A DNA stretch of 64,000 nt from Oscillospiraceae bacterium (GCA_015063385.1 SVUG01000005.1:5043-69042), one strand, 5' to 3'; counted from the first letter of the stretch, positions 36,587 through 44,992 are shown. Notes: a model not told the origin generated them from the sequence alone. Made by a program: numbers and translations.

Positions 36587-38668
36587 TTACTGAATCGCCT
36601 TAAAGCATGTGTTGTCAATGTAAATATTTGCAGTAGAGCTTGGAGGTGCCCAGAGACGAATGAAGCGGAATGCCGTAGTGGTCTTAGTTGTAGCACCGGT
36701 GTATATAAGCTCACCGTTTACGTAATATTTAATTGCGCTACCGGTTGTCTTCCAGTCTTCAAACTCGAATCTGATATTCACCCACTCACCGGGGTTAACG
36801 ACCACCTTGCCTTCTCCGCGCTCGACGTAATAGGTTGTCACGTCATCAACCGTCTTCGCAGTGAATGCAAGAGATGTCATGCCTCCCCAGAAGGACGAAC
36901 TACCGTCAGTAGCCGTAGAGCTGTAGAACTGAAGGAACTCGTAATTCTGAGAGCTTCTGTTACTTGTAGCATCGATGAACATAATATCTGTTTCGAAAAC
37001 GTACTTATTTTTATTAAGAACGTCACTGGCAATATTGAAATATCCTGCAGATGCACTGGGATTGTTGGAAAGATGAAGCGCAGCATCACCATTTACGTTA
37101 ACTACTGATGCAGTGATACCCTCGCCGTCGAGAGTTGCACCGTTGGTAGCTGTCATCTTGCCTGCCTCGCCAAGAGCGGTTGCTGTAGTTCCGGTATAGG
37201 TAAGAGTGTTAGCGTCGGATGCGTAGCTACCCTCGCCGCGGCTACCTGCGTTGCCAACCGTGCCGAAGAAGGTGTTATCAAGGTAGAGAGTACCGGTAGC
37301 GGTCTTTCCATCAGCGCCGGGCATGCAAATACGTAGCTGGGAAATGCTGTTAGTGCTGGCAGCCTTCGTGCCCGAGCCAACGAGCTGACCGTTTACGTAG
37401 TATTTGATAACGTGATCAGCCTGCTTAACGTCCTCGAACTCAACGCGAAGGTTAATCCAGGAGTCAAGATCAAAGGTATAATCAAGACCCGTTGCAGTCA
37501 TTCTCAAAACGGGATTTTCGGCATCGGTAGTATCGTAGCTGATAGTAATGCTATCAAGCGCCCAGTTAACAAACGTCGCACCACCGTAATAGATGTGGAA
37601 GATTTCGCCGCCGGTACGCGTGCTTGCACAAGCAGCAACGTCGCTGTTAACCTTCAGGTCGGTTTCAAACGCGTAGACGTTGCCAATCTCGGGGCTGAAT
37701 CTGGGAATGTTTATGTAAGCCTCGTTTGAAGGAGCATTGCTTACGAAGCGTAGCGCGTAGTCACCGTTATCAAGCACGTGCTCTGCGTATAGGCCTTCAT
37801 TTTCAACGGCTTCACCCTTTTGAGTAGTGGTTGCCCACGTAGATATATTGCTAAAATCATTAGCACGGTCAAGGTAAATACCCGTACCGCGATAGGTGTG
37901 AGGAACGCAAAGAACGCTCTCTGTGACGCTGAAGGTTTCACCGTCAGATACCGTATCAACAAGCTCGCCTGCCTTGTTGTAGAGATTCCAGGTATCTGCC
38001 TTCTCATCACCCGTGTAGGTAAGAGAAATTTCGTCACCTACGAGGTAAGCACCCTTCTTATACTCTCCTGTGACGATACCGTCGGTCACCTTAACGTATC
38101 TGTAATTGGTGGGAATATCGTCTGCACCGCCGGGATAGTAATCGAGAAGAAGCTGTGCTGCGTCGCCTGCTGCAAGGAGCTTGCCGTAAGCCTCAGCCTT
38201 ATCCTCGTTATCGGTGGTAAAGATCATCTCGTTAAGATACTCAACTACGCTATATCTTCTCACAGGGCTCTTCGTGCCGTCAGCGGCAACAGCCTGAACG
38301 AAGAACTCGGTAGCAAGGTTCTTGAGTGCAACACCGGGAGTCTCAAACGCACGGCAGGTATAGCTTACGTCCTCGCCGCCGGGAATTACTACTTCCTCGT
38401 GAGCGGTGACGGTAGCAAGAAGCTCTGCCTCTGCATTCTTATCGGGATCTGCGGCGTATACGTTGAGCACCAAGCCCTCGGTATCCACGTTCTCGGGATA
38501 AACCGCATAGTAGAGATACATTTTTTCTGAATATTCAACCTTCTGGCTGATGATGTTAAGGCTCTTTTCAGGCTCACTCTCAACTGCAAAAGCAGTAATG
38601 CCGATGCAAGAAGCAACAAGGAGAACGAGCGAGATAGCCAGAACTATAATTTTAGTCTGTTTTTTCAT
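36587..38668 (-). CDS. secreted/lipoprotein member of the LamG-module family (unknown N-domain + 2 LamG-like modules)
   Basis: 693 aa. Signal MKKQTKIIVLAISLVLLVASC. The C-terminal module resembles the last module of the 2180-aa protein, including the linker RGEGSYASDANTLTYTGTTATALGEAGKM. Confidence 0.85.
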   Translation of the reverse strand: MKKQTKIIVLAISLVLLVASCIGITAFAVESEPEKSLNIISQKVEYSEKMYLYYAVYPENVDTEGLVLNVYAADPDKNAEAELLATVTAHEEVVIPGGEDVSYTCRAFETPGVALKNLATEFFVQAVAADGTKSPVRRYSVVEYLNEMIFTTDNEDKAEAYGKLLAAGDAAQLLLDYYPGGADDIPTNYRYVKVTDGIVTGEYKKGAYLVGDEISLTYTGDEKADTWNLYNKAGELVDTVSDGETFSVTESVLCVPHTYRGTGIYLDRANDFSNISTWATTTQKGEAVENEGLYAEHVLDNGDYALRFVSNAPSNEAYINIPRFSPEIGNVYAFETDLKVNSDVAACASTRTGGEIFHIYYGGATFVNWALDSITISYDTTDAENPVLRMTATGLDYTFDLDSWINLRVEFEDVKQADHVIKYYVNGQLVGSGTKAASTNSISQLRICMPGADGKTATGTLYLDNTFFGTVGNAGSRGEGSYASDANTLTYTGTTATALGEAGKMTATNGATLDGEGITASVVNVNGDAALHLSNNPSASAGYFNIASDVLNKNKYVFETDIMFIDATSNRSSQNYEFLQFYSSTATDGSSSFWGGMTSLAFTAKTVDDVTTYYVERGEGKVVVNPGEWVNIRFEFEDWKTTGSAIKYYVNGELIYTGATTKTTTAFRFIRLWAPPSSTANIYIDNTCFKAIQ

Positions 38669-38704
38669 TTCATTTCACCTTTCAAATAAATTTTAGTTTA
38701 CGAC

Positions 38705-38866
38705 TTACCAATCGCGAGGATCTACGGGAGTCCACTCGCCTCCGTTTCCTTCACCATCGGGGTCAAGCGTGCCGCCGCCCGACGTTGTAATCACGTCTGC
38801 AGTAGAAAACAAAACGATCTTCATTTTTGCTTCCTCATACGCTTTCTTTAGTTCAAGAGTATTCAC
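38705..38866 (-). CDS. small ORF (53 aa from GTG 38866; 59 aa from ATG 38884), first gene of the 693/437/2180 operon
   Basis: GGAGGT lies 6 nt before the GTG. Translation (M)NTLELKKAYEEAKMKIVLFSTADVITTSGGGTLDPDGEGNGGEWTPVDPRDW. Below the 60-aa track cutoff. No family recognised. Confidence 0.45.
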   Translation of the reverse strand: MNTLELKKAYEEAKMKIVLFSTADVITTSGGGTLDPDGEGNGGEWTPVDPRDW

Positions 38867-38908
38867 GTTTTTACCTCCATTCATCTAATTTTTTATTATT
38901 CCATTTTA

Positions 38909-38937
38909 ATAATATCATATATAAACAAAAAGTGTTA
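38909..38937 (-). promoter_or_regulatory. promoter of the small-ORF/693/437/2180 operon (weak -35)
   Basis: Minus-strand TAACAC (38937..38932), 17 nt spacer, TATTAT (38914..38909). The same layout occurs upstream of the 894-aa gene. Confidence 0.5.
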
Positions 38938-38955
38938 GCAAAATATATAAAAGAT

Positions 38956-38973
38956 ACTTGTAAAATTCATAGA
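38956..38973 (-). promoter_or_regulatory. conserved 18-mer TCTATGAATTTTACAAGT (candidate AraC-regulator site)
   Basis: Lies 18 nt upstream of the TAACAC box. 16/18 identical to 44975..44992 at the same spacing. Overlaps the -35 of the divergent araC-type promoter. Confidence 0.5.
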
Positions 38974-38986
38974 TTTATGTTATAAT
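38958..38986 (+). promoter_or_regulatory. araC-family gene promoter, copy 1 (drives the truncated copy)
   Basis: TTGTAA (38958..38963), 17 nt spacer, TATAAT (38981..38986). Confidence 0.55.
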
Positions 38987-39028
38987 AAATAACAAAAAGG
39001 ACAAAAAGCAAAAGGGAAGGAGAAAAAT

Positions 39029-39406
39029 ATGATTTCACATATAGGTACGAAGGCTACGCTGGCACCCCAGGATTTGTATCCCGACCACACTCATCATTGC
39101 TTTGAAATAACCTATATACACGAGGGGTGCGGCTTTATGCACACCGCAAACGGTGACATGCCGTTTGAGAAAAACAGCTTTTACATTATACCGCCCAACG
39201 CGATACACAGTCTGGTTTCAGCCAACGGGCACATAGCAACGTCCATGCTAACCAGAAACGAGCGCCTATCAAGCATACGCGACGTGATGTGGGCAAGAGA
39301 CGTTGTAATCACGTCTGCAGTAGAAAACAAAACGATCTTCATTTTTGCTTCCTCATACGCTTTCTTTAGTTCAAGAGTATTCACGTTTTTACCTCCATTC
39401 ATCTAA
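39029..39406 (+). pseudogene. truncated duplicate of the AraC-family regulator (cupin half only)
   Basis: The first 92 codons are identical to 39547..39822. At the duplication junction the frame runs into antisense small-ORF sequence (VITSAVENKTIFIF...). No HTH domain. Confidence 0.85.
39181..39402 (-). pseudogene. chimeric duplicate of the small ORF
   Basis: The first 35 codons are identical to the intact copy (MNGGKNVNTLELKKAYEEAKMKIVLFSTADVITTS). It then reads antisense through the truncated araC copy. Confidence 0.75.
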
Positions 39407-39473
39407 TTTTTTATTATTCCATTTTAATAATATCATATATAAACAAAAAGTGTTAGCAAAATATATAAAAGAT

Positions 39474-39504
39474 ACTTGTAAAATTCATAGATTTATGTTA
39501 TAAT
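39474..39504 (+). promoter_or_regulatory. copy 2 of the 18-mer and araC-family promoter (drives the intact regulator)
   Basis: Exact duplicate of 38956..38986, shifted by 518 bp. Confidence 0.55.
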
Positions 39505-39546
39505 AAATAACAAAAAGGACAAAAAGCAAAAGGGAAGGAGAAAAAT

Positions 39547-40296
39547 ATGATTTCACATATAGGTACGAAGGCTACGCTGGCACCCCAGGATTTGTATCCC
39601 GACCACACTCATCATTGCTTTGAAATAACCTATATACACGAGGGGTGCGGCTTTATGCACACCGCAAACGGTGACATGCCGTTTGAGAAAAACAGCTTTT
39701 ACATTATACCGCCCAACGCGATACACAGTCTGGTTTCAGCCAACGGGCACATAGCAACGTCCATGCTAACCAGAAACGAGCGCCTATCAAGCATACGCGA
39801 CGTGATGTGGGCAAGAGACGTTGATAATCACGAGCTCGAGAGCATTATAAAAATTATGGTCGAGCACAGGAGCGACCTTGGTGAATTTTTGCAGTATCTC
39901 GGAAAGGCCGTGGTGCTGATTATGCTTGATTTGATTGGAATAGACGAGCTGGAGCAGGCTCGTTCTAAGGCCGTTGAGCAGATAATTACCAAAATCAACC
40001 GTCATTTTTCCGACCCTGAGTTCAAGGTTAAGACCGCGCTCGAAGAATCGCCTTACGCTGAGGATTACATCAGAGAAATTTTTAAGGCACAAACCGGCTT
40101 GACGCCAATGCAGATGCTCTCCGAGGTGCGCCTCAAGCACGCGGAAAATATTATGCTTTACTCATTGTCGGAGCGTTCAATATCCAATATTGCGCTAGAG
40201 AGCGGATTTGACGACCTCGCTTACTTTTCCAAGGTGTTCAAAAAGCGATTTGGAATGTCGCCCGCGGAATATAAGAAAAAGAACGGCAAGCTCTGA
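39547..40296 (+). CDS. AraC-family transcriptional regulator (cupin sensor + AraC HTH)
   Basis: 249 aa with GGAAGGAG RBS. The C-terminus ISNIALESGFDDLAYFSKVFKKRFGMSPAEYKK is a typical AraC second HTH. Confidence 0.9.
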   Translation: MISHIGTKATLAPQDLYPDHTHHCFEITYIHEGCGFMHTANGDMPFEKNSFYIIPPNAIHSLVSANGHIATSMLTRNERLSSIRDVMWARDVDNHELESIIKIMVEHRSDLGEFLQYLGKAVVLIMLDLIGIDELEQARSKAVEQIITKINRHFSDPEFKVKTALEESPYAEDYIREIFKAQTGLTPMQMLSEVRLKHAENIMLYSLSERSISNIALESGFDDLAYFSKVFKKRFGMSPAEYKKKNGKL

Positions 40297-40313
40297 CGGC
40301 TCGTCGTTTTCAC

Positions 40314-40349
40314 AAAAAACGGTTAGGACTAAACGCCTAACCGTTTTTG
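40314..40349. terminator. bidirectional terminator between the convergent araC-type and GH2 genes
   Basis: AAAAACGGTTAGG-8 nt loop-CCTAACCGTTTTT. 13-bp stem with A/T runs. Confidence 0.8.
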
Positions 40350-40363
40350 TTATTTCATGAAAT

Positions 40364-42076
40364 TTAAAACGTTTTTGTTTGTTTTGTTATATTTCGGTAT
40401 ATTTCCTTCACCGCGAAGAAGGACGCCTTCGGATTTCTGTATTCGTTAAGAAGTCCCTTGTTGTTGTAGCCTCTTGCGCGAGAAATTCCCGCCTCGTACG
40501 AGGTTCTGACGTCACAGAATTGCCAGATGTACGTGCCGACCATCATGGGATCGCCAAGGAACAGATTCAAGCAGTGCGAAAGCAATCTCGCCTGATATTC
40601 CTCGCTCCAGCGATAAGTTTCAAAATTGCGGTGACCGTACACTGCTGCGCCGCCGAACTCGCTCATGATTACGGGCTTGTTATCAAAGCCGAGCTTGCTC
40701 CTGTACGCGCGGAAGTCCTCGATGAATTTACCCCAGGATTCAATGTCACCCTCGTACCAGCCGTTGTACTGGTTAAGACAGATGATATCACAGTATTCAA
40801 ATGAAATATCGCTAAGCGCCTTGTTAGAAGCATAGGTGACGATGCGGTTGCCGCCGATTTCCTTTAAGAGCGAGTAATACTTTTTAGTCATTTCAAGACC
40901 GGCAACGGTATCCGAAAGAATTTCGTTATGCATACCCCAAATTATGATAGAGGGATGGTTGTAATAATGCTTTACCATCTCACGATGCATTTCCTCGCCT
41001 CGACGAATTACCACGGGGTCAAGAAGCACGCTCTCCTCAAATCCAACGCCCCAAATCGGGATTTCGCTCCAGAAGGTTATTCCCCTCTCGTCGAGCATGT
41101 CAACGAATGCAGGATTGTTTGGATAATGAGCTCCGCGGAGCGAGTTGCAGCCCATGTCGACAGCAATATCAATGTCGCGCCTCATGAGCGCGCTCGGAAA
41201 GGCAAAGCCGAAGTCGGGGTGGTCCTCGTGCCTGTTTACACCGCGGATGCGGTATTCGCTACCGTTGAGCAAAATTTTGCCGTCGCTCACGCATATTTTA
41301 CGGAAGCCAACGCGGTCAAAAAGGTCATCAGATGAGGTTGAAATTTTCACATCATATAGTGCCGGATTTTCCGCAGACCATAGCGAAAAATCAGTAATTT
41401 TGACAGCATTTGTAAATTCTTCTTTACATTCCCCCGCTTTTAAGAGCGATTCAAATTCAAAATCGGCGCCCGCGACGCTAACCCTTATAGTATCTTTTAT
41501 TTCTTTTTCGGAGGCATTATACAGTTCAAGGGCGACTCGAAGATTAAGCTCGCAAAGATCGTCGGAAAGCTCGTACTCCACCCTGTTTGAAAGTATCGAA
41601 ACACCCTCAAGGCGCTCAACGCTTACGGAACGAATAATACCTCCGCAGTGATACCAGTCGACCAAAGCCTGTGGAATCGACTGCTCGTCGAAGGAATTGT
41701 CTACTCTTACGGTGAGTCGATGCTCTCCGCTTGTGACGTCGCGCACTATCAGCTCAAAGGGGCAAAAGCCGCCGTAATGATAGCCTATTTCCTCTCCGTC
41801 AAGATAAACTCGCGACTCGGTCATCACCGCACCGAAAACAAAGCGCAGCGTGCCGCCGTGGCTGAAGAATTGACGCTCGTACCAAGCCACTCCCTCGTAC
41901 TCGAGCAATCCAAGCTGGGTATTCCATACGGACGGCACTATCACCGTCTGTGCGTTGGGAATCCCTCTTTGCCATCTTTCGCTATCTCCTCGATTATCGG
42001 GGTCGGTTGCAAATTTCCACGCTCCGTCGAGCGACTGCACAGCTCTTTTTATGTGTTCATCAAAAAGCCTCGTCAT
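40364..42076 (-). CDS. GH2 glycoside hydrolase (beta-glucuronidase/beta-galactosidase type), no signal peptide
   Basis: 570 aa. Motifs GAWKFATDP, YEGVAWYERQF, NRHEDHPDFG, IIWGMHNE (acid/base block) and VIMSEFGG (nucleophile block). Confidence 0.85.
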   Translation of the reverse strand: MTRLFDEHIKRAVQSLDGAWKFATDPDNRGDSERWQRGIPNAQTVIVPSVWNTQLGLLEYEGVAWYERQFFSHGGTLRFVFGAVMTESRVYLDGEEIGYHYGGFCPFELIVRDVTSGEHRLTVRVDNSFDEQSIPQALVDWYHCGGIIRSVSVERLEGVSILSNRVEYELSDDLCELNLRVALELYNASEKEIKDTIRVSVAGADFEFESLLKAGECKEEFTNAVKITDFSLWSAENPALYDVKISTSSDDLFDRVGFRKICVSDGKILLNGSEYRIRGVNRHEDHPDFGFAFPSALMRRDIDIAVDMGCNSLRGAHYPNNPAFVDMLDERGITFWSEIPIWGVGFEESVLLDPVVIRRGEEMHREMVKHYYNHPSIIIWGMHNEILSDTVAGLEMTKKYYSLLKEIGGNRIVTYASNKALSDISFEYCDIICLNQYNGWYEGDIESWGKFIEDFRAYRSKLGFDNKPVIMSEFGGAAVYGHRNFETYRWSEEYQARLLSHCLNLFLGDPMMVGTYIWQFCDVRTSYEAGISRARGYNNKGLLNEYRNPKASFFAVKEIYRNITKQTKTF

Positions 42077-44974: not shown

Positions 44975-44992
44975 ACTTGTAATTTTCATAGA
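44975..44992 (-). promoter_or_regulatory. conserved 18-mer TCTATGAAAATTACAAGT (candidate AraC-regulator site)
   Basis: Lies 18 nt upstream of the TAACAC box. 16/18 identical to 38956..38973. Confidence 0.5.

Follow-up and report, generated by a model that had tools for sequence, protein, structure and literature searches.

Microhomology-mediated tandem duplications (MTDs), also termed 'short-junction' duplications, have been described in bacteria and fungi as perfect head-to-tail repeats bounded by short repeats, one of which is retained at the joint (PMC13167724; PMC8639346; the 'Tandem' preprint, 10.64898/2026.05.22.727201). In bacteria they are widespread, frequent, mostly neutral and variable in copy number (PMC13167724), and they are reported to revert rapidly (PMC8639346). 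Duplications at microhomologies of 5-25 nt form a class treated as RecA-independent (10.64898/2026.05.22.727201). The duplication presented here shares this anatomy, and is similarly characterised by the absence of long flanking homology, by polymorphism in its population and by an expectation of reversion or expansion. It differs in three respects. Its unit is longer than those of the reported majority class (518 bp, whereas 38% of bacterial units are below 50 bp; PMC13167724), its microhomology arm is imperfect (7 nt, a 1-nt indel and 8 nt), and the unit spans a divergent control region, so that both flanking genes are intact.

A second precedent is provided by promoter or operator duplications that raise expression, such as those reported to activate horizontally transferred genes (PMC11111574). 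In the present case, too, intact genes have gained a second full promoter region on their upstream side. However, the extra promoters point towards one another, the unit includes no whole gene, and any effect on expression is hypothetical. The regulator encoded at the locus is comparable with E. coli AraC and RhaR and with C. perfringens BgaR (PDB 2arc, 5u93 and 6nwo): all possess an N-terminal cupin barrel followed by helices and a C-terminal double helix-turn-helix (HTH), and, as with these regulators, the gene is divergent from its predicted target operon and a putative operator overlaps its own -35 element. Identity between the N-domains is, however, only 10-17%.

The window (the whole 64,000-nt stretch of DNA that was analysed) lies on contig C26 of a metagenome-assembled genome of 1.69 Mb, comprising 28 contigs and 88% complete. 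Base-by-base comparison of positions 38781-39298 (copy 1) with 39299-39816 (copy 2) revealed the same nucleotide at 518 of 518 positions, head to tail, and a repeat search returned the same pair (family D1, spacing 518). Identity at period 518 spans 525 nt, extending 7 nt beyond copy 2, because the heptamer GACGTTG also opens the right flank. TRF did not report the repeat, as its longest period is 500.

At the left boundary of the unit, GCCGCCC is followed by GACGTTGTAATCACGTCTGC; at the joint between the copies (39298/39299), GGCAAGA is followed by GACGTTGTAATCACGTCTGC; and at the right boundary, GGCAAGA is followed by GACGTTGATAATCACGAGCTC. The microhomology GACGTTG(-)TAATCACG was accordingly found at 38781, 39299 and 39817, with a single copy at the joint. 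Beyond GACGTTG the left arm continues as TAATCACG and the right arm as ATAATCACG. Alignment of GACGTTG-TAATCACG with GACGTTGATAATCACG gave a match of 7 exact nt, a 1-nt indel and 8 exact nt. The left arm (GACGTTGTAATCACG, 38781-38795) resides in a small open reading frame (ORF), whose conserved D-V-I-T-T-S motif it specifies on the minus strand, and the right arm (GACGTTGATAATCACG, 39817-39832) covers codons D91-H95 of the AraC-type gene. At the novel joint, the arm (39299-39313) is preceded by araC-side sequence up to 39298 and continues as small-ORF-side sequence from 39306.

The rarity of this pair of arms was assessed in a 6.5-kb single-copy reconstruction of the neighbourhood, in which the breakpoint pair was the second-best short near-repeat. 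Three rows of near-repeat pairs of at least 15 nt were observed, compared with 0.1 in shuffles, and two of the three were the two halves of this pair on either side of the 1-nt indel. Thus, the breakpoints fall at a rare microhomology and not at random positions. A search of 37000-42000 and of the 6.5-kb reconstruction revealed no IS element or flanking repeat (about 35 bp or more) on which RecA-dependent unequal crossing-over could act. Identical head-to-tail units, arms that bound the single-copy unit and leave one arm at the joint, a single-copy allele in relatives (described below) and the lack of a long flanking repeat or IS element together place the repeat among the MTDs.

The unit contains no complete gene. 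It consists of the 5' 35 codons of the small ORF (minus strand), the control region and the first 90 codons of the AraC-type gene (plus strand; 92 residues if the shared 7-nt arm is counted). It thus lacks the complete gene that would be expected of a selected gene-dosage amplification, being made up of the 5' parts of two genes and the intergenic region. Both full genes survive at the outer edges. The small ORF (38705-38884, minus strand) is the first gene of a surface-protein operon and encodes 59 aa from an ATG, or 53 aa from an alternative GTG start behind GGAGGT. The AraC/XylS-type regulator gene (39547-40296, plus strand) encodes 249 aa comprising a cupin barrel, three helices and an HTH_18 domain. 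Between them lie a regulator stub of 125 aa (39029-39406, plus strand), in which residues 1-92, including the whole cupin barrel, are followed by a 33-aa out-of-frame tail, and a chimeric small ORF of 73 aa (39181-39402, minus strand), in which 35 aa of the small ORF run into araC antisense sequence. The chimeric ORF was called as a gene in two other assemblies. An earlier note on this DNA had claimed, from visual comparison, identical copies with breakpoints at near-identical 15/16-nt sequences, two intact outer genes, and a middle stub and chimeric ORF that converge on each other, each behind a full promoter copy. The base-by-base comparison and the ORF coordinates agree with this description, including the gene content of the unit.

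Comparison of sequences indicates that the small ORF (53-59 aa) represents a real family. Three paralogs are present in the source genome (G000; C15:9301-9423, C20:189667-189792 and C8:34370-34483; L042-L044), each adjoining an AraC-type paralog, then a signal-peptide protein and then a toroid-domain protein of ~430-460 aa. Members have in common a D[VI]ITTSGG motif, in whose codons the left microhomology arm sits, followed by an acidic Gly/Trp-rich tail. The family matched no entry in Pfam or NCBIfam.

The earlier note had offered a very recent event, a heterogeneous population or an assembly artefact as explanations for the absence of divergence between the copies. An artefact would mean that one true copy exists and that the assembler walked a spurious loop. 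The contig ends of the source genome overlap by exactly 127 nt, the signature of SPAdes at k=127 on short reads, and with such an assembly the count of passes through a loop is a decision of the assembler; moreover, seven assemblies of the same clone possess one copy. A spurious loop nevertheless requires k-mers that cross the joint. Other public metagenome assemblies were located via exact protein look-ups, and the exact joint was found in eight assemblies of a 100%-identical clone, produced with other k values and other assemblers and extending to 141-mers. Three of these contigs run from the joint through the unit into the right flank (L017, IMG 3300029705; L021, 3300018495; L022, 3300024268) and four begin in the left flank, traverse copy 1 and the joint and end in copy 2 (L055, 3300018493; L056, 3300024303; L057, 3300022753; L058, ENA ERZ27248306). 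The eighth (L023, ENA ERZ27248446) measures 659 bp, or 518+141, and begins and ends with the same 141 nt; it represents a cycle of 518 bp closed in a k=141 graph. The idea that this loop contig came from a 518-bp circle was rejected, since such a circle would have no replication origin and other contigs physically link the joint to both flanks.

The positions at which contigs terminate are informative in the same regard. Left-flank contigs from five assemblies end inside the unit after 20 (L039/L040), 30 (L038), 113 (L037) or 119 nt (L036), contigs running from the left flank to the joint end 99 or 103 nt into copy 2, and the start of L017 lies exactly 127 nt ahead of the last base that is shared. 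These lengths mostly coincide with k values in common use for de Bruijn graphs, as would be expected if the graph branches at a repeat edge. False joining by the assembler was also rejected: the arms share an exact run of just 7 nt, far below any k used, and therefore no k-mer graph makes the joint without real reads. In addition, the 1.69-Mb genome contains no other long perfect tandem repeat. The joint is thus real DNA and an artefact is effectively excluded for the joint itself, the number of copies being the assembler's decision; that the locus truly has one copy and the loop is spurious is extremely improbable.

A single copy, continuous from left flank to right flank within one contig and displaying both arms, was found in seven assemblies of the same clone (IMG 3300024272, 3300018878, 3300024269, 3300018494 and 3300022661; ENA ERZ27248370 and ERZ27248351). 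Neither the joint-bearing nor the single-copy contigs have any mismatch to the window in their overlaps (1.3 to 5.1 kb each), and all of them therefore derive from one clone. A sister strain of 98-99% identity also has one copy in four assemblies (L025, L030, L031 and L032); SRR14556454, which holds this strain, is part of a goat/sheep (Caprinae) gut dataset. Since one copy is present in seven same-clone and four sister-strain assemblies, we conclude that the ancestral allele had one copy and that the duplication arose recently and still segregates. The duplication hence postdates every point mutation of the region. Among 40 relatives searched at the DNA level, 24 of which belong to the same genus, no alignable locus was found, and the comparison accordingly rests on same-species metagenome contigs. 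Of the three explanations for zero divergence, a very recent event and a heterogeneous population hence stood, while an artefact of the joint did not.

Within this one clone, which belongs to an uncultured gut Clostridia bacterium with a small genome, the duplicated allele dominates some samples and is scarce or missing in others. Joint-bearing and single-copy assemblies interleave in the JGI submission series (Ga0187908/09 versus Ga0187910/11, Ga0216341 versus Ga0216339, and Ga0257089/90 versus Ga0257076/77), and this numbering suggests that they are sibling samples of one project in which different alleles dominate. The joint-bearing assemblies, being 100% identical over flanks of 1.3-5.1 kb and mostly short contigs, may represent one project or lineage and not independent populations, and some of the ENA assemblies may be re-assemblies of the same reads. 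The locus offers a clean natural example of one uncultured gut clone in which a 518-bp control region is present once or twice (or more often), the alleles being otherwise without differences where contigs overlap the window, which marks the duplication as biological and not an error.

We therefore consider it probable, with good confidence, that the repeat is a real and very recent MTD segregating in one clone and close to neutral. The anatomy of the joint suggests that, during replication or repair, a nascent end misaligned between the near-identical 15/16-nt sequences of the small ORF and the AraC-type gene, which are spaced 518 bp apart, and that the 518 bp between the arms would then have been copied a second time. 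Microhomology as the basis of the duplication, as the earlier note had proposed, is supported both by this anatomy and by the rarity of the arm pair. In the sister strain the araC-side arm reads GACGTTGATACTCACG, with one more mismatch to the other arm; the duplicating clone therefore had the better arm match. Long perfect tandem homology can collapse or expand through unequal recombination. With 518 bp of perfect homology, the duplicated allele should be unstable, either collapsing to one copy or expanding.

A further difference from the sister strain was observed at the right breakpoint. Within 135 nt of the window (39816-39951), a stretch that starts at the base directly before the right microhomology arm, lie 18 of the 32 right-side differences between the strains. 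Six of these 18 alter amino acids within the regulator's first two helices, the remainder being synonymous. To the left of this stretch the 518-bp unit itself has just 4-5 differences. The divergent stretch looks like an imported recombination patch with its edge at the duplication breakpoint, which may also have improved the microhomology.

The consequences of the duplication for expression depend on the control region, present as copy 1 at 38885-39028 and copy 2 at 39403-39546. Each copy contains an 18-mer (TCTATGAATTTTACAAGT; minus strand, 38956-38973 and 39474-39491), a predicted araC promoter (TTGTAA-17-TATAAT; plus strand, 38958-38986 and 39476-39504) and operon promoter candidates (minus strand, 38941-38909 and 39459-39427). 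The 18-mer overlaps the araC -35 element, and its sequence and position fit a candidate operator of the AraC-type regulator; the duplicated allele holds it twice, in line with the note's claim that the number of putative regulator sites is doubled. The 18-mer also recurs with 16 of 18 matches, as TCTATGAAAATTACAAGT, at 44975-44992 upstream of a second operon (894-aa/GH2), at a similar distance from a TAACAC...TATAAT promoter. An Rfam scan of the region found no structured RNA.

Each intact gene retains its native proximal promoter and operator in both allele states, and basic regulation would be preserved for this reason. The inner pair of predicted promoters, namely the copy-1 araC promoter (plus strand) and the copy-2 operon promoter candidates (minus strand), face each other about 440 bp apart and would add convergent transcripts. 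Among terminator-like hairpins in 38600-40400, none lies inside the 518-bp unit: the only plus-strand intrinsic-terminator-like hairpin follows araC (40315-40348), and on the minus strand there is a weak 5-pair match at 40303-40287. As the unit contains no terminator, the inner predicted promoters can read through into the intact genes. The effect is expected to be at most a modest shift in promoter/operator and regulator/operon dosage, which would most probably leave the allele neutral or close to it.

An alternative is that the duplication is a selected cis-regulatory copy-number variant, in which an extra promoter and operator for both divergent units would provide reversible tuning of the AraC-controlled surface-protein/glycan operon. 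Several observations would accord with this proposal. The joint occurs in eight of ~15 assemblies of the clone, with contig-end signatures in three more, even though a 518-bp perfect repeat should be unstable; that an allele expected to be unstable is found in roughly half of the assemblies could reflect selection. The unit also includes a complete control region with the 18-mer that recurs at 44975-44992, and the inner promoters, unimpeded by a terminator, can read into the intact genes. The isolated closed loop contig, finally, suggests an excess of joint coverage in one sample, ERZ27248446. There, the unit and joint form an isolated loop while the left-flank contig stops at the k=119 vertex, which hints that joint reads outnumber flank-to-unit reads and thus that more than two copies are present, an outcome not predicted by a plain model of two neutral copies. 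Patchy low coverage could give the same picture, however. Further points weigh against selection: the unit lacks a complete gene, convergence of the inner promoters may lead to interference instead of added output, and the allele is confined to one clone and absent from the sister strain, so that nothing points to recurrence. The distribution would be explained equally well by drift during culture or host bottlenecks, and large surveys find MTDs to be mostly neutral (PMC13167724).

Taking both sides together, we regard selection for extra promoters and operators as unlikely. The fuller version of this proposal, in which the 518-bp unit is a reversible selected copy-number variant, perhaps at more than two copies in some samples, that tunes the surface-protein/helical-toroid glycan operon, is quite doubtful. 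If it were true, gains in the number of promoters and AraC-type operator sites would let the clone change its state of expression with no need for point mutations. Should amplification or substrate-linked shifts in allele frequency prove true, the locus would offer a handle on AraC-type control of an otherwise unstudied surface-protein operon. A programmed or phase-variable switch, which should recur in separate lineages and toggle a gene or promoter, does not fit: the duplication was found in one clone only, and both genes and their proximal promoters are intact in both states. The near-neutral MTD is thus our best reading, making the event an ordinary member of a common and mostly neutral class of bacterial mutation.

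The duplication also raises the question of whether the regulator stub could act in trans. The intact regulator scored 71.6 bits with HTH_18 (cutoff 33.6), 51.9 with HTH_AraC (cutoff 26.6) and 26.9 with AraC_binding (cutoff 21.1), and its C-terminal double HTH was additionally identified by PDB sequence matches. None of the NCBIfam equivalogs matched it at cutoff, and a scan of a collection of genome contigs with the regulator gave only an unrelated HTH match of 30% identity. An AlphaFold model built from a 23-sequence alignment (mean pLDDT 91) predicts a barrel spanning residues 2-90, with its last strand at 87-90, followed by helices at 96-106, 113-130 and 134-153 and then the DNA-binding domain. 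The modelled N-domain superposes on the regulatory domains of E. coli AraC (2arc), RhaR (5u93) and BgaR (6nwo) over about 140-154 columns/residues. Mapped onto the model, the break (residue 92/93) lies in the loop that connects the last barrel strand to the first helix.

The stub would thus consist of the whole predicted β-barrel, it scores 28.3 bits with AraC_binding (cutoff 21.1), above the Pfam cutoff, and its promoter, ribosome-binding site and start are identical to those of the intact gene. On these grounds it might be imagined to soak up effector or to form dead heterodimers with the regulator, as the earlier note had suggested. The N-domain of E. coli AraC reportedly dimerises via the helices after the barrel (Soisson et al. 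1997). All three of the corresponding predicted helices (96-153) are lost from the stub, which therefore lacks the part that carries the dimer interface in E. coli AraC, so that the proposed poisoning of regulator dimers is unlikely and was not borne out by the model and this likeness. Titration of ligand by the predicted barrel-only stub is speculative and possible only if the stub is stable. Its 33-aa tail is hydrophobic nonsense (mean hydropathy +1.0) that would favour misfolding or degradation, and no homologous stand-alone barrel protein was found among relatives. An activity of the stub in trans is accordingly very unlikely, and under the favoured reading of a near-neutral MTD the duplication generated the 125-aa 'regulator' and the 73-aa ORF as side products, neither of which should be annotated as a gene.

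Two other features of the assemblies were observed. Contigs of the clone end at shared sites inside the GH2 gene, at 40945 (L020, L021 and L022) and at 41914-41929 (L016, L019 and L027), which suggests graph branches arising from co-occurring strain variants or paralogs. Furthermore, an element of ~130-160 nt occurs in near-tandem at the end of contig C7 of the source genome (46216-46570) and at the end of the window's own contig (C26:70402-70531), and related copies are present at several other contig ends; this element is a dispersed repeat that breaks assembly.
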